A DNA stretch of 64,000 nt from Candidatus Poriferisocius sp. (GTDB lineage: Bacteria; Actinomycetota; Acidimicrobiia; Acidimicrobiales; Bin134): contig NZ_OZ241836.1 of NCBI RefSeq assembly GCF_965202595.1, forward strand, positions 1,104,357 to 1,168,356, read 5' to 3'. The notes beneath the pieces were generated by a model. It did not search any database and had not been told where the DNA came from. It worked only from the letters and a program-made list of their open reading frames with translations. How positions within the stretch are numbered: the stretch's first letter is position 1; each line of letters starts with the position of its first letter. A program made the position numbers and the translations under genes. Shown one piece after another: positions 580 to 54,728 of this stretch.

Positions 580-1389
580 CTACCTTCCGGTGAAGTTGGG
601 GGGTCGGCCCTGGTGGCGGGATGCGGCCCATTCCCGAAAGTCGGCCGAGCGGGATGACAACTCCATGGCGAAGGCCTCGTCGCCCAGATGAGACTCCAGG
701 CTTCTACCGGAACTGCGGCTGATGAGGGTTTTGGTCAGCCCGATGGACACGGTGGCCGAGGCCGCCAACCGGGTGGCCAGCGCCAAAGCCTCGGCATCGA
801 CGTGGTCGGCGGGAACCGCTTGATGGATAAGTCCCCAAGCAGCGGCGTCGGCTCCGGAAATCTCCTCGCCCAGCATCAACATCCGTTTGGTCCGGCTGAT
901 CCCGGCCAAACGGGGCAGGAGCCATGACATCCCACTGTCGGGGGTAATGCCCATGGAGGTGAACGGTGCCCGTAGCCGGGCATCCTCAGCAGCTACCGCG
1001 AAGTCGCAGGCCAGTACCAGGCTGAGGCCCAGACCCACAGCCCATCCCTGTATCGCGCCCACGATGGGTACCTGCACCTCCAGCATCACCGGGATGAGCC
1101 GGTTCACCAGATAGGGCATGCGGCGGGAGATGCTGCCCGGTCGGGGCCGGGGGCCACTTCCGATCCGACCGGCCAGGTCGAAGCCGCTGCAAAAGTTGTC
1201 GCCCTCGGCATTGAGTAGTACTGCCCGAACATCCTCGTCGGAGCCGGCGGCTTCCAGGGTGTCGATAAGTGTGAGAACGATGTCGTCGGTCAGTGCGTTG
1301 CGACGCTGGGGACGGTCCAGGGTGAGGATCAGCAGCGGTGGGGACGAGACCACTCTCAGTCCCTCCGGTGGGTTGGGGTAGGGCTTCAT
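580..1389 (-). CDS. enoyl-CoA hydratase/isomerase (crotonase) family protein
   Basis: The 269-aa C-terminal part of track ORF 580..2025 has crotonase-like segments LTLDRPQRRNAL, NFCSGFDL and GWAVGLGLSL. The ATG at 1387-1389 overlaps the TGA of the upstream mini-ORF (ATGA). Confidence 0.85.
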   Translation of the reverse strand: MKPYPNPPEGLRVVSSPPLLILTLDRPQRRNALTDDIVLTLIDTLEAAGSDEDVRAVLLNAEGDNFCSGFDLAGRIGSGPRPRPGSISRRMPYLVNRLIPVMLEVQVPIVGAIQGWAVGLGLSLVLACDFAVAAEDARLRAPFTSMGITPDSGMSWLLPRLAGISRTKRMLMLGEEISGADAAAWGLIHQAVPADHVDAEALALATRLAASATVSIGLTKTLISRSSGRSLESHLGDEAFAMELSSRSADFREWAASRHQGRPPNFTGR

Positions 1390-1468
1390 GATCGGTGGTG
1401 CTCCGAGCGTAGCAACCCGACCGGTTTCACCGCCGGGGGGTAGGGCTTCATGATCGGTGATGCTCCGG
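1375..1468 (-). repeat. 62-bp junction duplication (about 1.5 copies) creating a 21-aa linker ORF at 1386..1451
   Basis: GGGGTAGGGCTTCATGATCGGTG[G/A]TGCTCCG occurs at 1375-1406 and 1437-1468. Both copies carry the ATCATGA stop/start overlap. The linker ORF reads MKPYPPAVKPVGLLRSEHHRS. Confidence 0.9.
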
Positions 1469-2752
1469 TTCTGCGCCTTCGCCGGTTTCCATGGCCGCGA
1501 ACCGCTCCACCAGAGCTTCCAGCGCTTCCGCCGAAGTCGAGGCTCCGCCCGGGGCGTTGGGAAGCCGGACCGGCCCGTGCTCCCGGCTGGGCAGCAGAAC
1601 GGTGGCATGCCCCGGGGTTGTGGTCTCGCCCCGCTGGTTCTCCCCCCAGATATCCAGATCCACTGCCGGGAGGTCGCCACCGGCCAAGTACTTGCGAGCC
1701 ACCCGACCTCGCATCCAGTGGGTATCGCCCACATAGTTGAATCCTCGGAACTGGCAGTCCAACCGCCACAACCAGGCATCGTCACCCATCCAGTCGGTGC
1801 ACAGGTGAGTAAGCCAGCATTCCCGCATTCGCCCGTAGTCGTACACCGCGGGACTACCCGCTCTCTCGGCCCACTCGGGATCCCAGTGGACCCGCTGCTG
1901 CACATCGGGGACACCGAGGGCATCGGGTCGGAAAAAGCGGGGCACCCGCCGGCGCTGCTGGTACCCCAGGCGCAGGGCTTTGACCCCGTAGAGCCCCATA
2001 CCCATGCCCGCGTGCCAGCAAACAATGTCGGTCACCCGCAGTGGCCCCTTCACCAGAGGAGCAAGCTCGTCCCCCACCTCGGTGTCCTCATACCACCGGG
2101 GTTCCGCGCCCCGGCGGTTGCCGGGTTCGGCGGCGTAGGCCTCGTCAATGCGAGCCAGTTCATCGGTGCCATAGGGTTCGATCAGGCTCTCCCGCTCATG
2201 GCGGGTGGCCTGGGCCTCGGCCCGATCGGTGCGGATCATGAGCCGGTACTGGGCTGACAGCACCGGCCCTCCGCCGGCTGCGAACACCTCGGCGGTCCAT
2301 TCGTGGATCGCTCGATTAGCGAACCGGCTCCGCTTGTCGTGAACTCCGACCAGCGCGTTGCGCCGGGTAACCCGGGTACCGGGTCGCAGGGGTTGCCACC
2401 ACTCCCGGTGGCTGGCCGAGTAGTGGGCCTGCGCTCCCCTGAGTGGATCTCCCCTGAGTAGGGCGGCGGTTTTCGGATCCAGCCGCTCCACCTCGTTCTC
2501 GCCGATCAGCGTATCCCCGCCCACCATCGGCGGCGGGGCGATGGGTCCGCCCCACACGGTCCCCAACCCGTACTCGGGGTCGCACCACAGGGGATTGTCG
2601 TCACCGTAGGCTTCGGCCACCTGCCGGAAAGCATCCTCGTTGGGTACCTGGAAACGGGGTGGTTGGGGATGGGGCGTGGCTGAGCCTATGCGGCTCCGAA
2701 GCGCCGCCACCGCTTCGTCGGTTATGCCACCAGGGTGTCGTCCATCGTTCAC
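1448..2752 (-). CDS. MaoC/FAS1-like (double hotdog) acyl dehydratase family protein
   Basis: From track ORF 1448..2893. The sequence (DDNPLWCDPEYG..., a long two-lobed dehydratase-like protein) matches what I recall for the MaoC N-terminal plus MaoC dehydratase families. Start is uncertain: GTG 2752 or ATG 2836. Confidence 0.6.
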   Translation of the reverse strand: MNDGRHPGGITDEAVAALRSRIGSATPHPQPPRFQVPNEDAFRQVAEAYGDDNPLWCDPEYGLGTVWGGPIAPPPMVGGDTLIGENEVERLDPKTAALLRGDPLRGAQAHYSASHREWWQPLRPGTRVTRRNALVGVHDKRSRFANRAIHEWTAEVFAAGGGPVLSAQYRLMIRTDRAEAQATRHERESLIEPYGTDELARIDEAYAAEPGNRRGAEPRWYEDTEVGDELAPLVKGPLRVTDIVCWHAGMGMGLYGVKALRLGYQQRRRVPRFFRPDALGVPDVQQRVHWDPEWAERAGSPAVYDYGRMRECWLTHLCTDWMGDDAWLWRLDCQFRGFNYVGDTHWMRGRVARKYLAGGDLPAVDLDIWGENQRGETTTPGHATVLLPSREHGPVRLPNAPGGASTSAEALEALVERFAAMETGEGAEPEHHRS

Positions 2753-2891
2753 GAAACGAGAGTAGCCCTGAAGAGTAGCCCGCGAACCGGTTCGCGGGGG
2801 TGAGGGCGGATTCTTCGATGGCAGTGATCTCGCCATCAAGGGGTTGGCTTCGAACCGGTTCGCAGGGGTGGAGCTGAGCCAAACTGATTCC

Positions 2892-5652: not shown

Positions 5653-6795
5653 ATGGCCTATTCGATCATCGACGTCGACACCCACATCACCGAGCCGGCC
5701 GACACCTGGACCAGTCGAGTTGCCGCCCGCCACCGTGACCGCGTGCCTCGAGTGGAGGTGATCGATGGTCGCCAGATCTGGTTGCTGGGCGATGACCGCA
5801 TCGGGGCGGTGGGCCCGACCGCTCCGGCCGGTTGGCCCAAGCCCATGCCCGACTCGCCGGCGGGCTATCACGAGGTGCATCCGGCGGCCTACGATGCCGA
5901 CGCTCGCTTGAAGCTGATGGATCGGCGGGGGGTATGGGCCGAGGTTCTGTATCCCAATGTGGGCGGGTTCGGTGCCCAACGGTTCTTGTCGATTGCCGAG
6001 GCCGATCTGAAGCAATCGTGCGTTCGGGCCTACAACGACTTCCTGGTGGAGTGGTGCAGCGCCGATTCCCGGCGGCTCATCCCGTCGATGGCCACCCCGT
6101 TCTGGGATGTGGATGGCGCGGTGGCCGAGGTGGAGCGGTGTGCCGCTATGGGCTACCGGTCGGTGAACTTCACCGGCGAGCCCCAGGTGTTCGGGCTGCC
6201 GTACCTGGGTGAGCCCCACTGGAACCCATTCTGGTCGGCGGTGTGCGATAACGACATGGTGGTGTCCTTCCACATCGGTAGCGGTGAGTTCAACTGGGAC
6301 CACACCCGGGTGGAGCGTCGAGGTTTCGCCGAGGCCTACGCCCTGCAATCGGTGGATCTTTTCACCAAGAACGGGATCCAGGTGTGCGATCTGTTGCTAT
6401 CGGGCGTGCTGCCCCGCTTCCCGAAGCTGCGGGTGGTGTCGGTGGAGTCGGGGATCGGCTGGCTACCGTTCATGCTGGAAGCGCTGGACCACCAGTTCAT
6501 TGAGGGGGGTGGTCCGAGGGAGCGGCCCGAGTTCGACAAGCTGCCCAGCGAGTACTTCGCGGAGCAGGTGTACACAACGTTCTGGTTCGAGGAGTCGGCC
6601 CCCCAGGATTTGCTGGGAAGCAGGATCCCGCTGGACAACGTGCTGTTCGAGACCGACTTCCCCCACCCCACCTGTCTGTACGACAACGTGCAGGAGAAGA
6701 TTGCGGCCAGCATCGGCCACCTGCCCCCCGAAGCCCGCCATCAGCTTCTCTGGGGCAACGCCGAGAAGCTCTACCGGGTACAAGCACCGGCCTGA
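5653..6795 (+). CDS. amidohydrolase-2 family metal-dependent hydrolase
   Basis: MAYSIIDVDTHITEP... N-terminus and ...FETDFPHPT near the C-terminus are typical of the ACMSD-like amidohydrolase_2 fold. Confidence 0.8.
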   Translation: MAYSIIDVDTHITEPADTWTSRVAARHRDRVPRVEVIDGRQIWLLGDDRIGAVGPTAPAGWPKPMPDSPAGYHEVHPAAYDADARLKLMDRRGVWAEVLYPNVGGFGAQRFLSIAEADLKQSCVRAYNDFLVEWCSADSRRLIPSMATPFWDVDGAVAEVERCAAMGYRSVNFTGEPQVFGLPYLGEPHWNPFWSAVCDNDMVVSFHIGSGEFNWDHTRVERRGFAEAYALQSVDLFTKNGIQVCDLLLSGVLPRFPKLRVVSVESGIGWLPFMLEALDHQFIEGGGPRERPEFDKLPSEYFAEQVYTTFWFEESAPQDLLGSRIPLDNVLFETDFPHPTCLYDNVQEKIAASIGHLPPEARHQLLWGNAEKLYRVQAPA

Positions 6796-6985
6796 TAGGT
6801 GTGGCCATGAGCGATCAATGGGACATAATTTCCAGCCACTACAGCAACCAAAAGTTGCTGCCTGATAGGTGATGACCATGAACGATCAATGGGACCGGCA
6901 AGCTGGTGTGGCCATGAGCGATCAATGGGACCGGCAAGCTGGTGTGACCATGAGCGATCAATGGGACCGGCAAGCCGATGTGGTG
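6791..6985 (+). repeat. compound junction repeat: a 70/71-bp duplication plus 36-bp x3 in-frame copies of the downstream start region
   Basis: CCTGATAGGTG..CCATGA.CGATCAATGGGAC occurs at 6791 and 6861. ATGAGCGATCAATGGGACCGGCAAGC units have ATGs at 6878, 6914 and 6950. The ATG at 6807 opens a 21-aa ORF that stops at 6870-6872. Confidence 0.85.
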
Positions 6986-8435: not shown

Positions 8436-8615
8436 TCAGTTCAACACCAGGCCCTCGAGAGCACCCTCATATCAGTTCAACACCAGGCCCTCGAGAGCAC
8501 CCTCATATCAGTTCAACACCAGGCCCTCGAGAGCACCCTCATATCAGTTCAACACCAGGCCCTCGAGAGCACCCTCATATCAGCTCAGCACCAGGCCCTC
8601 GAGAGCACCCTCGTC
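8436..8615 (-). repeat. 36-bp x5 tandem copies of the BVMO 3' terminus, each including the stop codon
   Basis: TCAGTTCAACACCAGGCCCTCGAGAGCACCCTCATA occurs four times (8436, 8472, 8508, 8544), followed by the real end TCAGCTCAGCACC... at 8580. Each copy reads ...GALEGLVL(N/S)-stop on the minus strand. Confidence 0.95.
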
Positions 8616-10864: not shown

Positions 10865-10865
10865 C

Positions 10866-10956
10866 CCGAACTTGTTGGATCGCGGACCTCATCGGATTAC
10901 CGAACTTGTTGGATCGCGGACCTCATCGGATTACCGAACTTGTTGGATCGCGGACC
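10866..10956. repeat. 34-bp tandem repeat (about 2.7 copies) starting 2 nt after the cupin stop codon
   Basis: CCGAACTTGTTGGATCGCGGACCTCATCGGATTA occurs at 10866, 10900 and 10934 (partial). It lies between convergent genes. Confidence 0.9.
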
Positions 10957-11472: not shown

Positions 11473-12349
11473 GGCTGGTCACGGTTCCGGGGGAGGATCC
11501 CGGTGCGGGGGCTTGGAACACCCAACGGTTGCCGGTGCGGGACAGGTGGCCGCAACCGGGGCCGGCGAAGTGGGTGCCGAGGATGAGCACGCCGGAGTCG
11601 GCGTAGCGTTCCCGGAACTCCACCCGGGTGGCGGAGGCTCGTGACGGATCGTCGTCGGCGGTCATGATCCAATCCGGGGCGGCGAACTGCACCGGATGGT
11701 GGACCAGGTCACCGGTGATTACCGCCTCCTGGCCCCGGGATGAGATTTGGACGCTGACATGGCCAGGGGTATGGCCCGGCGTGGGCATGAGGCGGATCTC
11801 GCCGGTGACCTGGTGGTGACTGTCCACGAGGTCGGCCAAGCCGGCCTCCATTACCGGCTGCACAGCGTCGCCAAAGGTTACCGCTGCCCCCTCCGCCCCG
11901 GAGTCCCAGTAGTCGTACTCGGTGCGGTTGAACAGGTAGCGGGCGTTGGGGAAGGCCGGCACCCACTTGGCATCCACGAGGATGGTATTCCAGCCCACAT
12001 GATCAAAGTGCAGGTGGGTGCAGAGCACCACATCGATATCGGGGGGTTCATACCCGGCGGCGGCCAACTCGTCGAGGAATCCGGTGCCGAGGTGGCTCAT
12101 CTGGGGAACCATCTCGATGGGCCGGTTGCCGATGCAGGTGTCCACCATCACGGTTTGGCCCTCGGACTCCAGTACCAGGGCGTGAATGGACAGCGGCAGG
12201 TTGCCGGACTCCTCCATGAAGTGGGGTTTCAACCAGTCGGCGTTGGCCTCGAACACTGCCATGTCGGGGTTCGTGTACATGCCGGTGGCGGGGACGCTTT
12301 GCAGGGTCTCCCGTATCAGGGTGACCTTCACGTCACCGATTGGCATCAT
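11465..12349 (-). CDS. MBL-fold metallo-hydrolase (lactonase-like)
   Basis: Contains the HLHFDHVGWN zinc-binding motif and a downstream TPGHTPGH. Confidence 0.8.
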   Translation of the reverse strand: MMPIGDVKVTLIRETLQSVPATGMYTNPDMAVFEANADWLKPHFMEESGNLPLSIHALVLESEGQTVMVDTCIGNRPIEMVPQMSHLGTGFLDELAAAGYEPPDIDVVLCTHLHFDHVGWNTILVDAKWVPAFPNARYLFNRTEYDYWDSGAEGAAVTFGDAVQPVMEAGLADLVDSHHQVTGEIRLMPTPGHTPGHVSVQISSRGQEAVITGDLVHHPVQFAAPDWIMTADDDPSRASATRVEFRERYADSGVLILGTHFAGPGCGHLSRTGNRWVFQAPAPGSSPGTVTSHG

Positions 12350-12422
12350 GTCCGGGTGACCTTCACATCACCGATTGGCATCATGTCCGGGTGACCTTCA
12401 CATCATCAATTGGCATCATGTC
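12321..12422 (-). repeat. 35-bp x3 duplication of the MBL start codon region, creating two 12-aa ATGA-coupled uORFs
   Basis: ATGATGCCAAT(C/T)G(G/A)TGA(T/C)GTGAAGGTCACCC units have ATGs at 12419, 12384 and 12349. The upstream copies read MMPI(D/G)DVKVTRT-TGA, with the TGA overlapping the next ATG. Confidence 0.9.
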
Positions 12423-12525
12423 GGCCATGCTCATCCTCCAAAGATTATGCACTGGCCACCGGGGGCGAGCCATCGTGGATGGGAGGATGGGCAGGTTCGT
12501 ATGGTTATGAATGTTATGGGTATGA

Positions 12526-16405: not shown

Positions 16406-17853
16406 GCGATTGCGTTCCCCTCCAAGCAGTGGCCCCCCGCCGGGCCGCGAAATTACGGGCAAAGCGGTGGCGTATCGCGAGTTGCGTTCCCCTCCAAGCA
16501 GTGGCCTCCCGCCGGGGGGTGGTTCTGTTCACGGCCGCCGTGGTTATGGCGATCATCGGTGCCTGCGGGTCTGGTTCCCCCGGCTCCCCCGGCTCCCCTG
16601 CCGCGGTCACACCTCCGGTAGTCTCCGAGCCCGGATTCGCGGTCACGCCGTACCCTGATCCCGGTTCGGTTGTCCATGCCGACCCGGTTTACCGGCTGGA
16701 CGGCAACCGGATAACAGAAGGCTCCGGGTTGGGTACCGGGTTCATTAACCAGGTCACTACCAAGGACTTGAGCCTGGATGATGTCCCCACCTGGATAACC
16801 GGGGCCAGTACCCCGGCAGGGGATGTCTGGGTGGTAGCCCTGGCTGACGGAACGACAGTGGGCTACCGCGTACCGGTTGGTGGGCAGCCGGTGGAGATCG
16901 ACATTGTCGGCGACCGGCTGAACCCCGGCCAACCGCCGATGCTGGCCATCCAGGGAAACTCGGTGCGCTTGGCCACCACCCCGGCCAACGCACTGTCCAG
17001 CGGTGTCCCGGTGTATCTCAACCAGGACCGCACCGCCTATGTGGACAACCTCCAGCGGTTCACCGTCCTGGAGGCCGACGGCACGCTGTGGCGCCCCGAT
17101 CTGGAAGTGCTGCCCGACACCCGGATGGTTCAGGTCAGCCCGGAGAAAGTGCTGTTACTGGCCGGACCCACCAACCGCTATCCCCATTCCGCCCTGGGTG
17201 ACAACCTGGAGGCCACTTCGGTGGTGGCGGTCACGGTTGGGGTGAACGAGCTCGAAACCATCTACCGATCCGGGGATGATGTCATCGAGACCATCGCCCC
17301 CCTGCTGGCCGATGTGGACGGGGACGGGATCGATGATGTGGTGCTCACCGTCAGCAACGATGCCGGAATCAGGATCGTGGTTGTTTCGAGCACCGGCGGA
17401 GGCGTGGTGGCAACCAGCGATCCCACCGACCGCCTGCTGGGCTGGCGGCAGCTCATCGCGGTGGGACCGCTGGGACCCGACGGGGGGACCGAGATCGCCG
17501 AGATCCTCCATCCCAGCACCGATGGCTCGGTAAGGTTCCTCAAGCGGAACGGACCCGGCCTGGATGTGGTCGCCCAGAAAGTTGGCTATCGATCCCACGA
17601 ATTCGGAACCCGCAACCTCGAGCAAGCCCTGGTTGTAGACGCCGATCGGGACGGCCATCCGGAAGTGGTCGTTCCCACCCTGGACCGGCAATCCATGGCC
17701 GGGGTGCGTCACGCCCCCGATGGGGCGGCGGAGATGTGGGTTCGCCCTCTGGGGGGGACGCTGGCCACCAACATCGCCGCTCTCACCCGTCCCGACGGTA
17801 CCTTATCCCTCGCAGCCGGAACCCGGGAAGGTTCGCTGCGTATATGGCAATGA
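16402..17853 (+). CDS. secreted lipoprotein with FG-GAP/VCBS-like repeats
   Basis: Lipobox-like ...VVMAIIGAC followed by GSGSPGSPGSP. Contains DVDGDGIDDVVL and DADRDGHPEVVV Ca-binding-like repeats. The N-terminus contains a 72-bp in-frame duplication. Confidence 0.6.
   Translation: MSDCVPLQAVAPRRAAKLRAKRWRIASCVPLQAVASRRGVVLFTAAVVMAIIGACGSGSPGSPGSPAAVTPPVVSEPGFAVTPYPDPGSVVHADPVYRLDGNRITEGSGLGTGFINQVTTKDLSLDDVPTWITGASTPAGDVWVVALADGTTVGYRVPVGGQPVEIDIVGDRLNPGQPPMLAIQGNSVRLATTPANALSSGVPVYLNQDRTAYVDNLQRFTVLEADGTLWRPDLEVLPDTRMVQVSPEKVLLLAGPTNRYPHSALGDNLEATSVVAVTVGVNELETIYRSGDDVIETIAPLLADVDGDGIDDVVLTVSNDAGIRIVVVSSTGGGVVATSDPTDRLLGWRQLIAVGPLGPDGGTEIAEILHPSTDGSVRFLKRNGPGLDVVAQKVGYRSHEFGTRNLEQALVVDADRDGHPEVVVPTLDRQSMAGVRHAPDGAAEMWVRPLGGTLATNIAALTRPDGTLSLAAGTREGSLRIWQ
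16407..16516 (+). repeat. 72-bp in-frame duplication (about 1.5 copies) of the lipoprotein 5' end
   Basis: TTGCGTTCCCCTCCAAGCAGTGGCC(C/T)CCCGCCGGG occurs at 16410 and 16482. It encodes CVPLQAVA(P/S)RR twice. Confidence 0.9.
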
Positions 17854-17981
17854 GCACCTGGCTATCCGGTAGTGCGTATATGGCAATGAGCACCTGGGTA
17901 TCCGGTAGTGCGTATATGGCAGTAAGCACCTGGGTATCCGGTAGTGCGTATATGGCAGTAAGCACCTGGCTATCGGGTAGT
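17838..17981 (+). repeat. 36-bp x4 tandem copies of the lipoprotein 3' terminus, filling the whole intergenic gap to the ATPase
   Basis: GCGTATATGGCA(A/G)T(G/A)AGCACCTGG(C/G)TATC(C/G)GGTAGT occurs at 17838, 17874, 17910 and 17946. Each copy keeps RIWQ-stop, as CAA TGA or CAG TAA. Confidence 0.95.
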
Positions 17982-39666: not shown

Positions 39667-41343
39667 TCAAGCTTCGGTGACGGCACCTTTTTCGGCACCC
39701 TGGGCCAGGCGGGCGTACTTGGCCAGCACTCCCCGGGTATAGCGGGGTTCGGGGGGCTTCCAGCCGGCCCGGCGCTCGGCCAGCTCGGCCTCGCCGACCA
39801 TCATCTGGATCGAATGGCTGGGCACGTCGATGCAAATGGTGTCGCCCTCGGCTACCAGCGCGATGGGTCCGCCCTCGGTGGCCTCGGGGGCGACGTGGCC
39901 CACGCAGAACCCGTGAGTACCTCCGGAGAACCGCCCATCGGTCACCAGCGCGGTGTCCCCGCCGCGACCGGCCCCCTTCATTGCCCCGGTGATGGCCAGC
40001 ATCTCCCTCATGCCGGGTCCGCCCCGGGGCCCCTCGTAGCGGATCACCACGACGTCACCGGCTTCTATCCGCCCCCCGAGCACCGCGTCCATGGCCGCAT
40101 CCTCGCCGTCGAACACCCGGGCCCGACCCTCGAAGCGGTCGAAGTCGATTCCGGCCACTTTCACCACCGCCCCGTTGGGGGCCAGCGACCCGGTGAGCAC
40201 CGCGATCCCGCCGATGTCGTGAAGCGGATCGCCGAAGCGGTGAATCACCTCCCCGTCGGGGCCGGGGGGGTCGATCAGAGCCAGGTTCTCGGCCATGGTT
40301 CTACCGGTCACGGTTATCTCGTCGCCGTGCAGCAGACCCTCGTCCAGCAGCATCCGCAACACGACCGGCACGCCGCCGATGCGGTCGATGTCGGCCATGT
40401 GGTACTGGCCGTGAGGTTTGGTGTCGGCCAGGTGGGGTACCCGGGCCGCTACCCGGTTGAAGTCGTCCAGCTCCAACTCCACCCCGGCCTCCCAGGCGAT
40501 GGCCAGAAGGTGCAGCACCGCGTTGGTGGACCCGCCCAGGGCCATGGTCACCGAGATGGCGTTCTCGAACGCCGCCCTGGTCATTATCGTGCGGGGTCGG
40601 ATTCCCTGGCGCAGCAGCCCGATCACCGCGGTGCCCGCAGCGTAGCTGTAGTCGTCACGGCGGCGATCCACCGCGGCGGCCGAGGCGCTTCCCGGTAGGG
40701 ACATGCCCAGGGCTTCGCCGATCGAGGCCATGGTGTTGGCGGTGAACATGCCGGCGCACGACCCCTCGGTGGGGCAGGCGTTGCGCTCGATGGCGTCGAG
40801 TTCCTCGCTGTCGATGTCACCCACCGCGTGAGCGCCCACGGCCTCGAACACGCTCACGATGTCGAGCACCCGACCGTTGTGGTGGCCAGGGAGTATGGAG
40901 CCGCCGTAGACGAACACCGAGGGGAGGTTGATGCGGGCCGCGGCCATCAGCATGCCGGGCAGCGACTTGTCGCAACCCGCGAAGCTGACGAAGGCGTCCA
41001 ACCGCTCGGCGTGCATCATCGCCTCCACCGAGTCGGCGATTATCTCCCGGCTCACCAGCGAGGCCCGCATGCCCTCGTGGCCCATGGAGATGCCGTCGGA
41101 CACCGCAATGGTGTTGAACTCGAGGGGGAACCCACCGGCGTCCCGCACCCCCTGCTTGGCCCGTTTGGCCAGCCGATCCAGGGGCAGGTTGCAGGGGGTC
41201 ACCTCGTTCCACGACGACGCCACTCCCACCTGGGGCTTGTTCCAGTCGTCGTCGGTCATGCCCACGGCCCGAAGCATGGCCCGGGCCGGGGCCCGCCCGG
41301 ACCCGTCGGTGACTTCGTGAGACCGGGGCTTCATTTCGCTCAT
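39667..41343 (-). CDS. ilvD: dihydroxy-acid dehydratase
   Basis: [14 protein letters not shown]..., [13 protein letters not shown] 558-aa protein starting from the ATG at 41343. Confidence 0.95.
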
Positions 41344-41415
41344 GACGGCCAACCCCATCTGTCGCCAGCGGGTTGCTGCTCAGCTTCGTGAGACCGGGGC
41401 TTCATTTCGCTCATG
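41313..41415 (-). repeat. 71-bp duplication of the ilvD start region, creating a 24-aa ATGA-coupled uORF (41340..41414)
   Basis: CTTCGTGAGACCGGGGCTTCATTTCGCTCATG occurs at 41313 and 41384. The u[27 protein letters not shown] ends in a TGA that overlaps the ilvD ATG. Confidence 0.9.
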
Positions 41416-41440
41416 GCTACAGGCTAGTTACTGGAGTGGC

Positions 41441-42919
41441 TCAGCTTGGAGGGCAACGGCGGCGGGTGTTCAGAAGTTGGGTTACGGTTTTGCCGTCGGC
41501 TCGGCCTCGGGTGGCTTTCATCACTTGGCCGACGAAGAAGCCGGTGAGCTTGGTGTCACCGTCACGGAAACGGGACCACTCGTCGGGATGGTTGGCGATG
41601 AGGCCGTCCACCAGGGTCTCCAGCTCATCGTCCCCCATGGCTTCGAAACCCAGCGACCGGGCCACCTCCTCGGGTGATCCTCCCTGTTCAACCAGTACGG
41701 AAAGAACCTTCTTGGCCTGGGTTGCGGTCAGCTCCCCGGCATCCTCCATGGCCACCAGCCCGGCCAGAGCCTCGGAGGTCAGATTGCCCGAACCACCGGC
41801 CAGGTTGTGGACGATGTGGGTTATCACCCGTTCGGGTGTTGCTCCCCCGCCGATGGCACCCAGGGCCATGCCGTCCATGGATCGCTCGACGGTCAGCGCT
41901 ATGTGACCGGCATCGGCCGCAGGGACCGCCCGGGCCAGCTCGATCCGGCGGTCGCGGGGCAGGGGGGGCAACTCCCGGCGAATTCGCTCCACCCACCGGG
42001 GGTCGGGGTCGAGAGGCAGCAGGTCGGGTTCGGGGAAGTAGCGGTAGTCGTAGTCCTCCTCCTTGGAGCGCAAAGCGTGGGTGCGCCCGTCGTCCTCGTT
42101 CCAGTGCCGGGTCTGCTGTACTACTGGCCGGCCACTGGTCAGCAGATCGATCTGGCGGCGGGCCTCGTAGTCCACGGCCAGACCCAGTGAGCGCAGGGAG
42201 TTCACGTTCTTGATCTCGCACCGGGTGCCCATCCGGTTGCTGCCCGCCGGCCTGACCGACACGTTGCAGTCAACCCGCAGCGAGCCCTCCTCCATCTTGC
42301 CGTCCGATGCCCCCACCGCCACCAGAATCGAGCGCAGCTCGGCCACGTACTGGCGGGCCTCCTCGGCCGAGCGCAGATCGGGGTGTCCCACGATCTCGAT
42401 GAGCGGCACCCCGGCCCGGTTGTAATCCACCAGGGAGTAGCCGGCCTCATGGATGCGCCCGCCACCCCCGACATGGGTGGTCTTGCCGGTGTCCTCCTCC
42501 AGGTGGGCCCGTTCGATGCCTATGCGCCGCCCCGAGGGCAGCTCCAGCCAGCCATCGACGTTGATCGGTTGGTCGTACTGGCTGATCTGGAAGTCCTTGG
42601 GCATGTCGGGATAGAAGTAGTTCTTCCGGGCGAACACGGATGGTTGGATCCGGCAGTTGAGGGCCAAGCCCACCCGGATGGCCAACTCCACCGCCTTCTC
42701 GTTGAGCACGGGCAGCGAACCGGGCAGCCCCAGCGACACCGGGTCTATGTAGGTGTTGGGGTCACCGCCGAACCGGTTGGGGCTGGCGCTGAACAGCTTG
42801 GTCTCAGTGGCCAGCTCGGCGTGGACCTCCAAACCGATGACCGTCTCCCACGTCACCGGTTCGTTTTGAGTGTTGTTGCTCGTCATCGCCGGTTCGTTTT
42901 GAGTGTTGTTGCTCGTCAT
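41441..42919 (-). CDS. gatB: Asp/Glu-tRNA(Asn/Gln) amidotransferase subunit B
   Basis: [20 protein letters not shown].... The ATG at 42919 overlaps the gatA TGA. The alternative ATG at 42886 lies one repeat unit downstream. Confidence 0.9.
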
Positions 42920-42921
42920 CG
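42856..42921 (-). repeat. 33-bp x2 in-frame duplication of the gatB start ([10 protein letters not shown] twice)
   Basis: CCGGTTCGTTTTGAGTGTTGTTGCTCGTCATCG occurs at 42856 and 42889. Confidence 0.95.
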
Positions 42922-44376
42922 CCGGCTCGCTTCCAGCACGGCGGCGGCTCGGAACATGGTCGGCTCGCCCAGAGCGGGGGCCAGGATTTGTACCCCGATC
43001 GGCAATCCGTCGTCGCCGATCCCAAAGGGAACCGACATGGCGGCCTGACCGGTTAGATTCACCGGCACGGTACACACGTCACTCATGTACATGGCCATGG
43101 GGTCGGCGGTGCGCTCCCCCAGTGCGAAAGCGGTGGTGGGTGATGTGGGGCTCACCAGCAGGTCGAACCGTTCCCAGGCCGAGGCGAAATCGTTGATGAT
43201 GAGCGTGCGCACCCGCTGGGCCTTGCCGTAGTAGGCGTCGTAGTAGCCGGCCGACAGGGCGTAGGTGCCGATAATGATGCGACGCTTGACCTCGTCGCCG
43301 AACCCGGCCGATCGGGTGGCGATGTTCATGGCGGCGGTACTGGGGCCCTCCACTCGCAGGCCGTAGCGAACCCCGTCGTAGCGGGCCAGGTTGCTGGAAG
43401 CCTCAGCCGGGGCGATCAGGTAGTAGGCCGACAAGCCGTACACCGACGCGGGGACACTGGCCTCGCCCACCCGGGCCCCGGCCGATTGCAACGCCTCGAC
43501 CGCAACCCGCACTCGGGCGGCAACATCGGGGGCTATACCGTCTCCGTTCAGCTCGGTCAGAACCCCCACCCGGAGCCCCTCCACCCCGCCGTCCAGCGTG
43601 GCCGAAACCGGGGGTTGGGGCTCATCAATGCTGGTGGAGTCCCGGGGGTCGGGGCCGCTGATCGCATCCAGCACCGCAGCGGCATCGGCCACCGTGGTGG
43701 TGAGTGGGCCGATCTGGTCGAGGGACGAGGCGAAGGCCACCAAGCCGTAGCGTGACACCAGGCCATAAGTGGGTTTGACGCCGACCACGCCGCACAGCGC
43801 CGCCGGTTGGCGAATGGATCCGCCGGTGTCGCTGCCCAGAGCCACCGGGGAGAATCCGGCGGCCACCGCGGCCGCGCTGCCGCCCGACGACCCCCCCGGT
43901 ACCCGGTGAGGATTGCACGGATTACGGGTGGGACCAAAAGCCGAGTTCTCGGTGGAGCTGCCCATGGCGAACTCATCCATGTTGGTCTTGCCCAAAGCCA
44001 CCGCACCGGCTTGTTGCAGCCGCTCAACCACCGTGGCGTCGTAGGGGGGTTCCCAGCCCTCCAGGATGCGGGACGAGCAGGTGGTGGCCACTCCCCGAGT
44101 GCACAGGTTGTCCTTGAGGGCCACGGGTACTCCAGCCAGGGGGCCGGGATCCTTGCCCGCGGCCACCGCGGCATCGATCTCACCGGCCCGGGCCCGGGCC
44201 CGGGCCGCGGTCACCAGGTTGAAGGCCCCGATGTCGCCATCGCCCGCGGCAATGGCCTCCAGGTATTTGTCCACCACCGACCGGGCCGACCGCCGTCCCG
44301 ACCGGACCGCAGCGGCAATTTCTCGCGCGGTCGCGGGGCGCCCCGGTGAGGTCGGTGGGTCACCCAACCCGGTCAC
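42916..44376 (-). CDS. gatA: Asp/Glu-tRNA(Asn/Gln) amidotransferase subunit A
   Basis: Amidase signature [14 protein letters not shown]. Confidence 0.95.
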
Positions 44377-45450: not shown

Positions 45451-47378
45451 TCCACGACCGCGGCTGCGGGTGGGTTGCTGGCCAGTATCTCGGTGTCGTT
45501 CGGCCCCTCGATCTCCCCCGGACACAGCCCCAGGCCCTCCAGGATCTCCGTGGCCTCCTCCACGTTCAGGGTGGCCAGGGGGGGCACCGTAACCTGCTGG
45601 GGGCCATCCGAAACCACCACCGTCACCACCGAGTCAGCGGCCACCTCCGTTCCCGGAGGAGGTTCCACCCTCACCACGAGGCCGGAAGCCACCTGGTTGT
45701 CCTCCACCCGCCACTCCTCCACCCGCAGCCGGAGATCCTCCAGCTTCTCGACGGCCACGGCCCGCGGCGTACCGGTGTCTATTGCCGGCACCACCCGGGG
45801 CACCGGTCCGAGGGATACCACCAGGTCCACCTGGCCTCCCGGCTCGACCTCGGGGAACAGCTCGTCCACTTGGATGATGACCCCCTCGAGCACGATCTCG
45901 TCGTGGCGCTCGACCACCCCTCCCAGCGACAGACCCACCCCGGCCAGAACAGTCTCGGCATCCTGAACCGCTATTCCCACGAGACCGGCGGGGATGGCCA
46001 CCAGCTCGGGACCCAACGACACCCATACCGTTACCGTCTCGCCCCGTTTCAATCCGGTGCCCGGTTGGGGGTTCTGGCTCAGTACTTGGCCGGCCTCCGT
46101 ACCGTCCCGGCGCTGCTCACGGCGGTCGAGCACCCAGCCGAACTCGTTCTCGATACGCAGCAGCCCGGCCTCACCGGTACCAGCCAGATCGGGTACCGGC
46201 CGGGTCTCGGTACTGAACCAGTTGTCCCACGTCATGTAACCCCCGAACCCCACCGCCCCCACGAGCAGCACCATGAGCAGCAGCAGCCTCCGAAACCCCG
46301 CGGGTTCGATCCGGTGGGGGCTGCCGTCCTGCGGTCTCGTTGCCGAAACCGGATCATCAGGGGTGGCAGGCGCGGGTTCGATCCGGTGGGGGCTGCCGTC
46401 CTGCGGGAGCATCACCGCGGTCGGGGTGCCGGTCGTATCCTGGACGATGCTGGAGGCGGTGAAGGCTTCGGCATCAGATCCGGGCAACCCCGGTTCGGGC
46501 ATGTCCGGCAGGGCCCTGGACAGCGGAAGCGGTTCGGGGCGGTGCAGCGATTCCGCCGCTTCCAGAAGTCCGGTGGCCAGCTCGCCGGCGCTGGGACGTT
46601 CGTTGCGGTCCGGCTGCCCGGCCTCCTCCAGGACTCGACCCAGACGGCCGAACTGGCCGCCAAGATCGAGCTGTCGCCCCATCTTGGCCATCTGGGTGTA
46701 TTCGGGATCGTCGGAGTCGAACGGAACCTGCCCCGACAGGACCTCGGTGAGCACCAGCACCAGGGAGTACACGTCGCTCTTGTGGTCCGGGGTCAGGCCT
46801 TGAGTCTGCTCGGGCGGGGCGTAGCGAACCGCGTCCACCCTGGTGAAAACCGATCTCTCCGCCAACATCCCTGCCGTCTCCAGCATCACCCGGGACAGGC
46901 CCAGATCCGCCAGATGAGCCTGGCCTTGGTTGTCGAACAGGATATTGGAGGGTCGGATGTTTTGATGGATGAGCCCTAGCCGGTGTATGTGCTCCAGCCC
47001 GCGGGCAACCTCCAAGCCGACCATCAGGGTTTGGGAGGGCGACAGCAGGTGCCCGGATTCCAGTATTCCCAGCAGGCTTCCACCCTCCAGGTAGTCGGTC
47101 ACCACGTGGAAGCCATAATCGGATTTCCCCCAATCCCGGGTGGCCACGATGTTGGGGTGGGCCACCGAGGCGGTCTCCCGGGCTGCCTCGACAAAGCGGT
47201 CGGCAAGGTTCGGGTCGGTGGCCCATCCTGCGGGCAGAACCTCCGCCGGCAGCAGCTTGACGGCTACCCAGCAGGATTGCGACAGGTCGTGGGCCAGGAA
47301 CACATTGGTGAACCGGCCCGAGCCGATGAACGACACGAGCCGGTAGCGCTTGCCCAGAACTCGACCGATCTCCTTCAT
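45411..47378 (-). CDS. PASTA-domain Ser/Thr kinase homolog (PknB-like) with a degenerate catalytic loop
   Basis: Contains the GSGRFTNV G-loop, VAVK, DLG and APPE, a TM segment, and four PASTA-like units each ending ...SLGP/SDGP. The catalytic loop reads IHQNIRPSN instead of HRDxKxxN. Confidence 0.85.
   Translation of the reverse strand: MKEIGRVLGKRYRLVSFIGSGRFTNVFLAHDLSQSCWVAVKLLPAEVLPAGWATDPNLADRFVEAARETASVAHPNIVATRDWGKSDYGFHVVTDYLEGGSLLGILESGHLLSPSQTLMVGLEVARGLEHIHRLGLIHQNIRPSNILFDNQGQAHLADLGLSRVMLETAGMLAERSVFTRVDAVRYAPPEQTQGLTPDHKSDVYSLVLVLTEVLSGQVPFDSDDPEYTQMAKMGRQLDLGGQFGRLGRVLEEAGQPDRNERPSAGELATGLLEAAESLHRPEPLPLSRALPDMPEPGLPGSDAEAFTASSIVQDTTGTPTAVMLPQDGSPHRIEPAPATPDDPVSATRPQDGSPHRIEPAGFRRLLLLMVLLVGAVGFGGYMTWDNWFSTETRPVPDLAGTGEAGLLRIENEFGWVLDRREQRRDGTEAGQVLSQNPQPGTGLKRGETVTVWVSLGPELVAIPAGLVGIAVQDAETVLAGVGLSLGGVVERHDEIVLEGVIIQVDELFPEVEPGGQVDLVVSLGPVPRVVPAIDTGTPRAVAVEKLEDLRLRVEEWRVEDNQVASGLVVRVEPPPGTEVAADSVVTVVVSDGPQQVTVPPLATLNVEEATEILEGLGLCPGEIEGPNDTEILASNPPAAAVVDFGTCIKLITRPE
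46300..46405 (-). repeat. 72-bp in-frame duplication in the kinase juxtamembrane linker
   Basis: CGGGTTCGATCCGGTGGGGGCTGCCGTCCTGCGG occurs at 46301 and 46373. It encodes PQDGSPHRIEPA twice. Confidence 0.9.
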
Positions 47379-47434
47379 TTCGGGCACGCTTTGAGGGTAC
47401 CGATCTCCTTCATTTCGGGCACGCTTTGAGGGTA
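47365..47434 (-). repeat. perfect 35-bp x2 duplication of the kinase start, creating a 12-aa ATGA-coupled uORF (47375..47413)
   Basis: CCGATCTCCTTCATTTCGGGCACGCTTTGAGGGTA occurs twice. The uORF MKEIGTLKACPK ends in a TGA that overlaps the ATG at 47378. Confidence 0.95.
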
Positions 47435-47521
47435 CTGCCTGCTCGGAGTGGTTCCTGTGACTCGCCCAATCCAAAGTCATCCGGGGTGTATCTCGCCATC
47501 GGTAGCGGGCACACTGAGAAA

Positions 47522-47941
47522 GTGCGGAACTTCAACTTGTTGCGACGGCTACTTCTGGGAGCCGCAGCCCTGGTGGGCATAGCCGCCATCCTGCTGGCGC
47601 TGTTCCTGGCCGACACCGACGACATTGACGTGACCATCTCCGGCAACGCTGCGGTGGACGCGCTCATTCCCCCTCGCAACGCCGAGGTCCTCTCGCAAGA
47701 GACAGTGGGGGTGGATCTCGCCACCGGCTACGATGCCCGCCTGGCGCTCAACGGTGTGAACATTCCCCCGGAGCAGGTACGCCACATGCCCAATATCAAC
47801 CGGTTCACCTTCCGCCCCGATGAGGGGAAGGTGATCGAGAGGCTTCAGGCCGAGCGGAACTGTGTTGAGGTCACCTACTGGCCCCTCGCCGCCGGTCCCG
47901 AGCAGGCCGACACCATCAGTTGGTGCTTCAACGCTTCCTAG
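47522..47941 (+). CDS. hypothetical membrane-anchored protein
   Basis: N-terminal TM segment LLLGAAALVGIAAILLALFLA followed by a soluble domain of about 110 aa. The start is uncertain; the track ORF begins at TTG 47426. Confidence 0.4.
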   Translation: MRNFNLLRRLLLGAAALVGIAAILLALFLADTDDIDVTISGNAAVDALIPPRNAEVLSQETVGVDLATGYDARLALNGVNIPPEQVRHMPNINRFTFRPDEGKVIERLQAERNCVEVTYWPLAAGPEQADTISWCFNAS

Positions 47942-48050
47942 CCGGTTAGGTGTTTGTTTGTCCTCGGGGCTGGTGCTTCAACGCTTCCTAGCCGGTTAGG
48001 TGTTTGTTTGTCCTCGGGGCTGGTGCTTCAACGCTTCCTAGCCGGTTAGG
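47921..48050. repeat. perfect 50-bp repeat (2.6 copies) spanning a convergent stop/stop CTAG junction
   Basis: TGGTGCTTCAACGCTTCCTAGCCGGTTAGGTGTTTGTTTGTCCTCGGGGC occurs at 47921, 47971 and 48021. The plus-strand gene stops in copy 1 (TAG 47939-47941) and the minus-strand gene stops in copy 3 (CTA 48038-48040). Confidence 0.95.
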
Positions 48051-53215: not shown

Positions 53216-53466
53216 CCGCGATCCTCATCGAGAACTTCAAGCACCCCTTTTCTGGCAAAAAAGCGCTGTGTCGACTCCAACCCGGAGCGTTTCGAGGGCT
53301 CGATCCAGCCTTCCCGTATCCCTCGTTCTATGGCCGAATAGCCTGGTAGAGGTCCTAGCTGGGCTACCGGGCGGCCTCGATCGGTTATAAACACCGGTTC
53401 ACCCTCGGAAGCAATCCCGATGAACTCGGACAGCTTTGCCTTCAATTCCCTTATACCAACTTCCAT
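53212..53466 (-). CDS. type II antitoxin (Phd/YefM-like)
   Basis: MEVGIRELKAKLSEFI...GEPVFITDRGRPVAQL.... An 84-aa protein immediately upstream of vapC. Confidence 0.8.
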   Translation of the reverse strand: MEVGIRELKAKLSEFIGIASEGEPVFITDRGRPVAQLGPLPGYSAIERGIREGWIEPSKRSGLESTQRFFARKGVLEVLDEDRG

Positions 53467-53550
53467 GTAGTCACATTACAAGAATAACGTGACTACCGCA
53501 ATTTGCAGGCCAATAACCCCCCCTACCCCAGGACTGTTGGTTTCAACAGG

Positions 53551-54660
53551 TCACGCTGCCACCCCGCCGCCTATAACCAGATCACCCTGGTAGAACACCA
53601 GGGCTTGGCCGGGGGCTACTCGCCGCTGCGGCTCAACCCAACGGATCTCGCAACTGCCCCCTCCTCTGCTGGCGGTAACGGTGCCGACCATGGGGGCGGG
53701 GTGCGGGCCGCCTGGTTCGCCCTCCCTTGCTCTGCTTTCCGTAACCGTGCCGACCATGGGGGTACCGTGGGCGCTGGCCTGGATGTCCACCGGGCCGTTT
53801 ACCGCCTCGCCGGTCCACTGGATGCCAATCACGTCCTGGGTGTCGGTGTAGAGATCCTCCCGCCGGCCCAGGGTGATCCGGGCCGAGGCGATGTCCACGC
53901 CGGTCACGTACCGGGGTTCATCGTTTCCGCCCAGGTTCAGCCCCCGGCGCTGTCCGATGGTCACCGCCGGCACCGACTCCACCGAGCCCAGCACCGTTCC
54001 GTCGGCATCGACCACGGTTCCCGGCATCTCGCCCAACCGCCGGGCCAGAAAGCCGCGCCTGCCCCCCGACCGGTTGGCAATGAAACACACATCCTGACTG
54101 TCGGGCTTGGCCGAGTTGCGCAGGCCCAGATCGGCAGCCCGCTCGCGGACCTCGGCCTTGGTCAGGTGACCGATCGGCAGCATCAGCCGGGCCATCTGCT
54201 GCTGGCTCAACATGTATAGCACGTAGGACTGATCCTTGGCCGTGTCCACCCCCCGCTGCACACGGGGCCCGCCGCCGGTGTCCAGCAGGCGAGCATGATG
54301 GCCGGTGGCCACCGCGTCAAAGCCCAGGGCCTCGGCCCGCACCATCAGCTTGTCGAACTTGATGTGCCGGTTGCACTCGATGCAGGGGTTGGGGGTAAGC
54401 CCGCCGGCGTGGCCATCCACATAGGGGGTTACCACCCGCTGCTCGAAGGCATCGCCGAAGTTGAACACGTGATGCTCCAGACCCAGCCGGTCGGCCACCC
54501 GGCGGGCATCCTGCACATCTGACACCGAGCAGCAGCCGGTGTCCGACTCCCCTCCCCACAGCTTGAGGGTGACCCCCACCACATCGTGACCCTGCTCGGC
54601 CAGCAGCCCCGCAGCCACCGACGAGTCCACTCCTCCCGACATGGCGGCCAGAACCCTCAT
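53551..54660 (-). CDS. mnmA: tRNA 2-thiouridine(34) synthase
   Basis: MRVLAAMSGGVDSSVAA PP-loop, and CIECNRHIKF. Confidence 0.9.
   Translation of the reverse strand: MRVLAAMSGGVDSSVAAGLLAEQGHDVVGVTLKLWGGESDTGCCSVSDVQDARRVADRLGLEHHVFNFGDAFEQRVVTPYVDGHAGGLTPNPCIECNRHIKFDKLMVRAEALGFDAVATGHHARLLDTGGGPRVQRGVDTAKDQSYVLYMLSQQQMARLMLPIGHLTKAEVRERAADLGLRNSAKPDSQDVCFIANRSGGRRGFLARRLGEMPGTVVDADGTVLGSVESVPAVTIGQRRGLNLGGNDEPRYVTGVDIASARITLGRREDLYTDTQDVIGIQWTGEAVNGPVDIQASAHGTPMVGTVTESRAREGEPGGPHPAPMVGTVTASRGGGSCEIRWVEPQRRVAPGQALVFYQGDLVIGGGVAA
53675..53762 (-). repeat. 66-bp in-frame duplication inside the mnmA C-terminal domain
   Basis: GTAAC(G/C)GTGCCGACCATGGGGG occurs at 53675 and 53741. It encodes PMVGTVT(E/A)SR... 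twice. Confidence 0.8.
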
Positions 54661-54728
54661 TTCGTCACCTCCGGTACTGGGTGGTGGCTGGGGGTTGCTC
54701 CCTTCGACATGGCAGCCAGAACTCTCAT
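54635..54728 (-). repeat. 68-bp duplication of the mnmA start, creating a 23-aa ATGA-coupled uORF (54657..54728)
   Basis: CGACATGGC(G/A)GCCAGAAC(C/T)CTCAT occurs at 54637 and 54705. The uORF MRVLAAMSKGATPSHHPVPEVTK ends in a TGA that overlaps the mnmA ATG at 54660. Confidence 0.9.

Follow-up and report, generated by a model that had tools for sequence, protein, structure and literature searches.

Described systems and the setting of the window

The closest precedent for the duplications dealt with here, which carry the start codons of genes in the 64,000-nucleotide (nt) stretch of contig NZ_OZ241836.1 presented above (hereafter “the window”, to the whole of which all position numbers refer), is the mycobacterial interspersed repetitive unit (MIRU). 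According to the review PMC12548453, which cites Supply et al. 1997 on this point, MIRUs insert at start codons, and their internal open reading frame (ORF) is coupled to the gene at a -4 nt spacing, minimising the effect on expression. The likeness extends to an actinobacterial host, to units of 40-100 base pairs (bp) that are often tandem, to a position at start codons or intercistronic junctions, and to a small ORF within the unit coupled at the -4 nt (ATGA) spacing, which is seen here at 13 of 14 loci. MIRUs, however, are depicted there as a dispersed family with a shared consensus, thought to be mobile, whereas the present units are locus-specific and copy their own locus, and the copies and fillers (the latter being unrelated sequence lying between two copies) of different loci are no more similar to each other than random genomic segments are. 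The frame rule described below would, furthermore, emerge here by the filtering of a frame-blind process that also makes stop-spanning, intergenic and in-gene events. Tandem copies numbering two to four or more are found at gene junctions, the one second assembly being identical.

Termination-reinitiation coupling at overlapping gene pairs (ATGA or TAATG), for which PMC12548453 cites Huber et al. 2019 and 2023, has in common with the present loci the identical overlap of stop and start by 4 nt and a proposed mechanism in which the ribosome that terminates goes on to re-initiate, and same-strand ORFs whose stop overlaps the downstream start, or lies within a few nt of it, are what was found here. 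The upstream partner in our case is, however, a junk ORF made by duplication, and it can be chained (up to ~9 links at locus L097). Re-initiation after leader peptides or upstream ORFs (uORFs) and leaderless translation in Actinobacteria (PMC4833913; Shell et al. 2015, cited in PMC12548453) are similar in that short non-functional ORFs bring ribosomes to the main start, with the conserved uORF of a kinase gene and the leaderless geometry of ilvD as the counterparts in the window; the present decoys differ in being recent, lineage-specific duplication products and not conserved leaders. As concepts, termination-reinitiation at 4-nt overlaps and, in Actinobacteria, re-initiation after a leader ORF are both established.

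As regards the origin of the repeats themselves, microhomology-mediated tandem duplication, known from loci with variable numbers of tandem repeats (VNTRs) and contingency loci (bioRxiv 10.64898/2026.02.28.708716), likewise involves short tandem duplications that arise de novo and seed arrays that expand. The events described here differ from it in their junction microhomology of 0-4 nt, in the unrelated filler that about half of them have and in a density of ~5 per 10 kb, far above that in close relatives. Off-target (“neo-CRISPR”) spacer integration by Cas1-Cas2, reportedly the subject of work by Nivala et al. in 2018, comes to mind because the “copy, filler, copy” form has the dimensions of a repeat-spacer-repeat unit (modally 36 + 36 + 36 nt) with unique, non-local fillers of lower guanine-cytosine (GC) content. 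The copies, however, vary between 27 and 45 nt and the fillers between 24 and 49 nt, multi-spacer arrays are lacking, and the pure tandem events would be left unexplained.

The window, whose GC content is 65%, belongs to a 99.8-kb contig of a long-read metagenome assembly (ENA ERZ26693861), and its gene content and closest genomes place it among the Acidimicrobiia of sponges and marine settings, close to Candidatus Poriferisocius and to the Sva0996 group, the orthologues of its genes in the closest genomes being 70-91% identical. Loci of relatives are coded L005-L125: L119 lies on the same contig as the window, just outside it; L097, L124 and L125 belong to the sister genome OZ220474.1; and L084 comes from an independent assembly of another sample. 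No matches to Rfam families at the gathering threshold were obtained anywhere in the window, the window species was not found in the metagenomes of the Joint Genome Institute (JGI), and no account of such a duplication-rich state in the Acidimicrobiia was found in the literature.

Frame of the duplicated start codons

A wider census was run over ~145 kb from two repeat-rich genomes (81 kb of the window contig and the three loci of OZ220474.1), in which duplications having a start codon in both copies, with the downstream copy opening a long ORF with a coding-like GC profile, were sought irrespective of frame, and the hits were checked by hand. Fourteen loci with an out-of-frame duplication emerged (seven in the window, an eighth on the same contig outside of it and six in OZ220474.1; Table 1), and the duplication length is 2 mod 3 at every one of them (14/14, and 7/7 in the window; binomial P = 6e-5 calculated by hand, 13/13 having given 1.2e-4). 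This is what the sequence-only reading of the window had claimed from six out-of-frame start duplications (62, 71, 35 twice, 71, 35 and 68 bp), along with the absence of any 1 mod 3 start duplication. Its six sites are all present within 1-3 nt of where it had put them, the real start reads ATGA at each of these, and their decoy ORFs (i.e., the ORFs opened by the upstream copy) are 12-24 codons long, with a TGA that forms bases 2-4 of the next ATGA at five of the sites; at the sixth, the flavin adenine dinucleotide (FAD) oxidoreductase gene, the TGA lies 5 nt before the start. The six were not the full set, as a conforming seventh locus at the start of an Aminotran_5 gene had been missed. The genome-wide count that the sequence-only reading had proposed as a check has now been made over these ~145 kb, and it did not refute the claim.

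The same two genomes contain out-of-frame events without a start codon, and among these ten are 1 mod 3 (34, 52, 73, 34, 34, 37, 67, 64, 64 and 58 nt) and four are 2 mod 3 (71, 50, 38 and 65 nt), two more being ambiguous; the process generating the duplications is, therefore, not averse to 1 mod 3 lengths. The resulting contrast of 14:0 for start-carrying versus 4:10 for non-start events has a hypergeometric P of ~8e-5 (by hand; an earlier split of 13:0 vs 6:10 gave 4e-4). Seeming 1 mod 3 counter-examples in distant relatives, at L005 (85 and 49 bp) and L030 (61 bp), were discarded as intergenic arrays over spurious ORFs.

At 13 of the 14 loci the decoy overlaps the real start as (A/G)TGA, the exception being a 41-nt array before an adh_short gene (start ATGG), whereas NTGA is seen at 16 and ATGA at 8 of 50 non-duplicated starts; in-frame duplications of starts or N-termini have ATGA roughly as often as the base rate would give. 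The decoy stop ends at +3 of the real start in the overlap loci and 5-9 nt upstream of it in the FAD and adh_short cases. The decoy frame of a 2 mod 3 event reads xxA-TGN across the real ATG, and ATGA, TAATG and TGATG overlaps all belong to that frame, whereas an overlap of stop and start is impossible at 1 mod 3; in the genes of the window the median distance to a stop is 15 nt in the former frame versus 136 nt in the latter. A Shine-Dalgarno (SD) sequence is weak or absent at six of the eight real starts on the window contig.

We consider it quite probable that the frame bias is a survivorship filter imposed by termination-reinitiation, because the same process makes 1 mod 3 lengths at sites having no start. 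Short local duplications (30-75 bp, tandem or with a filler of ~36 nt) would arise often and with lengths not tied to frame. Where the duplicated segment holds a start and the copy is out of frame, ribosomes would load at the upstream copy, coming from a leaderless 5' end, from the upstream gene's stop or from a uORF, while the real start would then lie 17-71 nt downstream (the range of the conforming events), usually without an SD sequence of its own, and the gene would be expressed only when the decoy ORF terminates at the real start or immediately ahead of it, letting the terminating ribosome re-initiate. A length of 2 mod 3 together with ATGA would make the decoy frame read TGA over the real ATG, i.e., the classic 4-nt stop/start overlap; with a length of 1 mod 3 the decoy would be in a nearly stop-free frame of this GC-rich DNA, run deep into the gene and block the real start, and selection would remove such events. 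The sequence-only reading had itself offered selection for re-initiation-competent layouts as one of two explanations, and this one is supported both by 14:0 versus 4:10 and by native starts that appear to be fed from upstream.

That the affected starts would natively rely on ribosomes arriving from upstream, be it at a 5' end without a leader, by way of an upstream stop that overlaps the start or through a uORF, is supported by comparison with relatives. The relatives' ilvD genes (L097 and ~8 others) have a TANNNT element (TAGCCT or TACGCT) 6-7 nt before the ATG and no SD sequence; the -10-like TAGCCT of the window (41426-41421) now precedes the decoy copy, 6 nt upstream of its ATG, an arrangement consistent with the geometry of a leaderless start (a promoter scan of the E. 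coli type found nothing, as expected). The uORF in front of the PASTA Ser/Thr kinase gene, ending in an (A/G)TGA overlap, is conserved in three genomes (L091 and L097 among them), and the gene upstream of crotonase ends in a TGA that overlaps the crotonase ATG. The relatives' mnmA ATG, as ATGC(GA/GG), follows the upstream stop by 4 nt and is present in a single copy, which means that the filler and one copy (68 nt) were inserted in the window, where both copies have an Arg codon AGR. The crotonase junction was hit in OZ220474.1 as well, by an independent 53-nt tandem duplication, and these two events of different anatomy (62 nt with filler in the window) in two lineages both obey the frame rule.

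Two loci call for separate comment. The FAD gene has a single copy in OZ220474.1 (ATGAGTGATCGATGGGAT), and copy 2 in the window alone carries a 1-nt insertion and substitutions (GGTGTGGCC to GGTGATGACC, 6861-6878) that change the spacing from 70 to 71 nt and create two TGA codons (TGATGA), which is suggestive of a compensatory change. The start of the metallo-beta-lactamase-fold (MBL) gene was misplaced by the sequence-only reading onto a repeat unit, in fact a Met-Met inside the ORF: ATG 12428, with a conserved GGAGG before it (GGAGGA in the window), is the native start, and the relatives at L086, L087 and L125 have one copy with an identical SD sequence and N-terminus. The duplication there is a frameshift within the ORF behind the conserved SD sequence, rescued by an internal ATGATG, and the downstream 294-residue ORF is intact and 82% identical to its orthologues.

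Gene callers are also misled at the duplicated loci, as seen for ilvD, the kinase and MBL. The called ilvD (39667-41358) starts at 41358, adding five filler-encoded residues (MGLAV), and the called kinase (45411-47480) starts at 47480, adding 34 residues read through both repeat copies; both called starts are artefacts of the insertions.

The sequence-only reading had put the remaining start duplications (33, 36, 48 and 72 bp) in frame, which holds for the 33-nt event at the gatA/gatB junction and the 72-nt event at the Amidohydro_2 start. The 36-nt array at 17837 and the 48-nt one at 21976 span stops instead, and the 33-nt event at 24848 lies just inside its gene.

Table 1. Local duplications of the window and of the wider census, with window positions; each decoy peptide is followed by a stop codon.
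Feature	Position	Strand	Repeat structure	Decoys, starts and remarks
Start-carrying, out of frame: crotonase (ECH) start / stop of upstream 434-aa gene	1375..1467	-	31-nt copies 1375-1405 and 1437-1467; 31-nt unrelated filler; period 62	MKPYPPAVKPVGLLRSEHHRS from ATG 1451, ends 1386 on real ATG 1389; upstream stop TGA 1450-1448 overlaps decoy ATG 1451
Start-carrying, out of frame: FAD oxidoreductase start	6791..6982	+	copy 1 6791-6824 (with upstream stop TGATAG); 36-37-nt filler; copy 2 ~6861-6895; then in-frame 36-nt units; period 71	ATG 6807 to TGA 6870-6872; real ATG 6878 (ATGA); in-frame ATGs 6914 and 6950
Start-carrying, out of frame: MBL gene	12316..12430	-	three 35-nt units inside the ORF; period 35 twice	MADMMPIDDVKVTRT (stop ends 12381), then MMPIGDVKVTRT from ATG 12384 (ends 12346), then ATG 12349 of the 294-aa protein
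Start-carrying, out of frame: ilvD start	41313..41426	-	32-nt copies 41313-41344 and 41384-41415; 39-nt filler; period 71	24-residue peptide from ATG 41414, ends 41340 on real ATG 41343
Start-carrying, out of frame: PASTA Ser/Thr kinase start	47364..47499	-	35-nt tandem duplication 47364-47435	native uORF from ATG 47499 (ending AGSTLKACPK) stops 47410 on decoy ATG 47413; MKEIGTLKACPK stops 47375 on real ATG 47378
Start-carrying, out of frame: mnmA start	54637..54735	-	24-nt copies 54637-54660 and 54705-54728 (~92% identical); 44-nt filler; period 68	MRVLAAMSKGATPSHHPVPEVTK ends 54657 on real ATG 54660; stop TGA 54735-54733 of upstream cysteine-desulfurase-like gene 4 nt before decoy ATG 54728
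Start-carrying, out of frame: Aminotran_5 start / Rv2466c-like stop	55884..56015	-	older 38-40-nt array; 3 units, 73-80% identical; links 38 and 17 nt, both 2 mod 3	MNCSSTRPQQVPV from ATG 55942 stops on ATG 55904; MKANPQ stops on real ATG 55887; each via ATGA; first unit's ATG lost (ACG)
Start-carrying, out of frame: ABC_tran start	L119 (window contig, outside window)		32 nt x2.75	MIGPERVFPMS, then MTASERVFPMS
Start-carrying, out of frame: HAD start / ligA stop	L097 (OZ220474.1)		~ten 15-18-nt units	links used: 17, 17, 17, 17, 35, 17, 32 nt
Start-carrying, out of frame: 445-aa ORF start	OZ220474.1		59 nt	
Start-carrying, out of frame: crotonase junction	OZ220474.1		53 nt	
Start-carrying, out of frame: two CoA-transferase subunit starts	OZ220474.1		50 nt each	
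Start-carrying, out of frame: adh_short start	L125 (OZ220474.1)		41 nt x4	start ATGG
Control: 1 nt after Cupin_7 stop	10866..10956	.	34-nt x2.7 tandem repeat (1 mod 3), 100% identical	no start codon
Control: over P-type ATPase stop	20367..20471	+	34-nt copies; 37-nt filler; period 71	no start; also in L084
Control: between two convergent gene ends	47921..48050	.	50-nt x2.6 repeat	
Control: divergent intergenic region	56681..56778	.	52-nt (1 mod 3) composite repeat	
Stop-spanning: flavin monooxygenase gene	8436..8612	-	36-nt x4.9	unit = last 11 codons + TGA
Stop-spanning: 489-aa gene	17837..17981	+	36-nt x4	LRIWQ plus stop; real ATPase start 17993 outside array
Stop-spanning	21976		48-nt array	
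In frame, N-terminal	24848		33-nt duplication	codons 3-13 of its gene
In frame: gatA-stop/gatB-start ATGA junction	42856..42925	-	33-nt x2.1	
In frame: GTG start of Amidohydro_2 gene	29195..29302	-	72-nt event; 36-nt copies, 36-nt filler	upstream copy reads VLVVDTRRPRDYPTR, stopping inside filler
In frame: kinase linker	46299..46406	-	72-nt event; 36 + 36 + 36	PQDGSPHRIEPA-PATPDDPVSATR-PQDGSPHRIEPA
In frame: inter-domain linker of CoA-transferase	31687..31800	+	69-nt event; 45-nt copies, 24-nt filler	

Objections and alternative explanations

Several points weigh against a survivorship filter as the whole account. The anatomy of the loci, their frame statistics and the ancestral states are plain observations; that re-initiation occurs and is required at these starts is deduced from sequence alone. 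At mnmA a strong GGAGGTGA is supplied by the filler, 5 nt ahead of the real ATG, and coupling is not strictly needed there. The sample consists of 14 loci from ~145 kb, not of whole genomes. The adh_short array of L125 is 2 mod 3 without needing to be, its first decoy stopping 9 nt before the real start thanks to the three extra copies, which add 123 nt. Lastly, the window has seven out-of-frame start events versus about six in-frame ones, where a simple filter predicts roughly 1:3, and this excess may mean that ATGA junctions are mutational hot spots as well, or that the arrays are positively selected.

The excess just mentioned, together with the recurrence of events at the same junctions, is what keeps alive an adaptive explanation, in which the number of ATGA-linked copies tunes translation through the loss of ribosomes at each step, or the mini-ORFs serve as regulatory leader peptides. 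Multi-copy chains are ~100% identical (MBL x3, L119 x2.75, L124 x2.3 and x2.8), implying recent expansion, and ~9-10 links are chained in front of the HAD gene of L097. The same process, however, litters stops, protein linkers and the DNA between genes, none of which could serve such a function, the decoy peptides join the N-terminus of a gene product to filler and lack conservation between lineages, and no copy-number polymorphism is seen between the two available assemblies (the second being identical in the compared stretch). Adaptive chains are an unlikely alternative, although the least unlikely of those considered.

We regard as quite improbable a purely mutational bias, by which the process would favour lengths of 35 and 71 nt, next to the modes of 36 and 72, or 2 mod 3 lengths intrinsically, with frame being irrelevant. 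The period distribution of the window does peak at 33-36 and 66-73 nt, making 35 and 71 common, and the fourfold 41-nt array of L125 is 2 mod 3 at a site where frame should not matter; yet the non-start events of the same genomes are mostly 1 mod 3 (ten versus four), the conforming start events cover 17-71 nt and are not confined to 35 and 71, and length leaves unexplained why 13/14 loci have the ATGA-type overlap against a base rate of 32%.

A mechanism at the level of DNA, e.g., a nicking or restriction activity targeting ATGA or the palindrome TCATGA, was the other explanation put forward by the sequence-only reading (as a mechanism tied to the ATGA context), and it seems both unnecessary and very improbable. 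It fails on the length rule, because the targeting of a site alone would not fix the length at 2 mod 3, and on the position of the ATG within the duplicated segment, which varies from position 1 to the centre. Although TCATGA is found at several junctions (crotonase, the downstream ilvD copy and ABC_tran of L119), the kinase, mnmA and FAD sites read AATGA or CCATGA, and the stop-spanning and in-gene events occur without ATGA or CATG; targeting of ATGA would, on the other hand, suit the repeated hits at the same junctions in two lineages and an abundance of out-of-frame events, relative to in-frame ones, above what a pure filter predicts.

An origin of the pattern in chance, in biased ascertainment or in errors of a long-read assembly at 3x, for which a contig name indicating ~3x coverage and the picking of cases by eye in the sequence-only reading might be invoked, is hardly credible at all, given that an independent assembly reproduces the repeats, the exact ilvD protein including its filler-encoded residues is found on other contigs of >1 Mb, an unbiased scan returns the same set, P is ~1e-4, and the events keep out of coding interiors and, where a gene is hit, stay in frame, a signature of selection that no artefact would give.

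The duplication process, its fillers and other repeats

Behind the survivorship filter favoured here stands a process that has left ~28 local duplications in the first 58 kb of the window. One class is purely tandem, with 2-5 copies at periods of 32-39 nt for the most part (some of 42-54 nt), many of these repeats being 100% identical; the other, which makes up about half of all events, has the form “copy, filler, copy” and a period of 62-73 nt, ~31-39 nt of unrelated sequence being enclosed by a pair of ~31-38-nt copies, with 36 + 36 + 36 nt as its modal form in the window. Periods most often fall at 33-36 and 66-73 nt in the window (1-57900), and the distribution is broader (30-67 nt) in OZ220474.1 (L097, L124 and L125). 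Events found inside genes are in frame and lie within linkers, the remaining ones straddle stops, starts or intergenic DNA, and the in-frame, linker placement is a mark of selection.

The density of 4.6 events per 10 kb in the window compares with 0-2 per 10 kb in 80 other Acidimicrobiia loci; most of the 31 Poriferisocius-type loci are without any such event, and the closest listed relatives of the window (Ca. Poriferisocius and others) are mostly without repeats. OZ220474.1 is as repeat-rich as the window, and essentially no individual event is common to both, from which it follows that the process is recent and ongoing in both lineages. A search for more repeat-rich lineages through longer homologues of a 319-aa protein gave one contig with just two 72-nt events and another with none. 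As L084, the independent assembly, has the same four repeats across the 8.7 kb of window 15717-24385, the repeats are not assembly artefacts.

Outside these two genomes, a more distant marine relative (L121, a TARA scaffold) has two 72-nt events (10114-10221 and 20207-20317; copies of 36-39 nt, filler of 33-36 nt), one of them at a GTGA gene junction, which means that the 36 + 36 + 36 type is not limited to the two repeat-rich genomes. Orthologous genes for a 371-aa protein carry independent 66-nt “copy, filler, copy” events in the N-terminal region at L119 (11402-11503) and L125 (20127-20225), offset by ~20 nt and with different fillers, which points to recurrent hits at tolerant sites.

The fillers are newly inserted sequence, as judged from the comparison with relatives, and their GC content (0.578 vs 0.655 for the genome, P = 0.0006) is like that of intergenic DNA. 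A source for them could be traced neither in the window nor in ~2 Mb of related loci, nor within +/-150 nt, both strands included; the filler of L097 does not recur exactly either elsewhere in its own complete genome or in 185,579 species genomes, and no protospacer matches were obtained in the ~2 Mb of loci, four scans of viral collections and one metagenome scan, exact 26-mers having been used in both of these searches, which limits their power. The idea of a single element family was dropped, the fillers being barely more alike than random genomic segments (P = 0.05). Four start-proximal fillers (1406-1436, 6825-6861, 41345-41383 and 54661-54704) have AGCAACC(C) in common, three times at 5-6 nt from the filler edge; a shared 7-mer of this kind arises in ~4% of permutation controls and may be due to chance. 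The last of these four, that of mnmA, has an inverted match of 16/18 to 54602-54619 (mnmA codons ~15-20) that is not significant after multiple testing and could represent a hairpin enclosing the SD sequence and the start or a trace of template switching.

No cas Pfam domains or CRISPR arrays occur among the called genes and loci examined in the ~145 kb, and the junction microhomology of two-copy tandem events (copy numbers 1.97-2.12) is just 0-4 nt. It is tempting, but should be taken as tentative and rather doubtful, to imagine in the two sister lineages an active, previously undescribed generator that duplicates a target of 30-40 bp with or without ~36 bp of non-local, lower-GC filler, leaving ~5 surviving events per 10 kb, perhaps by promiscuous CRISPR-integrase-like insertion or through a new template-switching or repair defect, with ATGA-coupled and leaderless starts acting as “safe harbours” and array copy number as a heritable dial of translation.

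Some other repeats of the window look different. A divergent promoter region (2783-2870) holds CGAACCGGTTCGC(G/A)GGGGTG, which contains a palindrome, twice at a spacing of 68 nt, probably as paired regulator binding sites, and five 15-nt units with the palindromes TTGGCCAA and TTGATCAA (30317-30391, between the divergent Abhydrolase_3 and CoA-transferase genes) look like iterated operator sites, unlike the duplication events; the 68-bp pair at 2783, as probable palindromic operator sites, and the iteron-like repeats at 30317 were both left out of the counts. Intergenic short-period arrays of another class are found at 14265-14373 (16 nt x5, TGTCCGGCGGTTTCGC) and 44787-44866 (19 nt x4, GGGGAAGGGGAAACCGGGA). 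Two RCC1-repeat (PF13540) proteins (58001-60082 and 62447-63706, minus strand) are built of 111-nt (37-aa) repeats and share a 174-nt segment (59609-59934 and 63224-63550); sponge-associated genomes hold very many members of this family, and a search for paralogues on a 3.04-Mb contig bearing the window's proteins yielded none. An AhpC/TSA peroxiredoxin gene (21515-21967, minus strand) is split into ORFs of 37 and 93 aa, in the gene calls of the second assembly as well, and this reflects either decay into a pseudogene by frameshift or an assembly indel error at low coverage. Pairs of toxin-antitoxin type are encoded at 52814-53466 (PIN/PhdYeFM) and 60670-62366 (AbiEi/AbiEii), the former being absent at the syntenic position of the sister genome, where the HAD hydrolase gene follows ligA.

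What these loci expose is a lineage-restricted process of hyper-duplication, and with it nature's own mutational scan of how translation is initiated in an actinobacterium that has not been cultured: the hits are frame-blind, and the survivors would show what the ribosome needs. The 14:0 versus 4:10 rule implies that many starts in this lineage may be reached only by ribosomes relayed by a 5' end, a gene upstream or a uORF, and also that re-initiation at 4-nt overlaps would be efficient enough to be carried through several serial steps.

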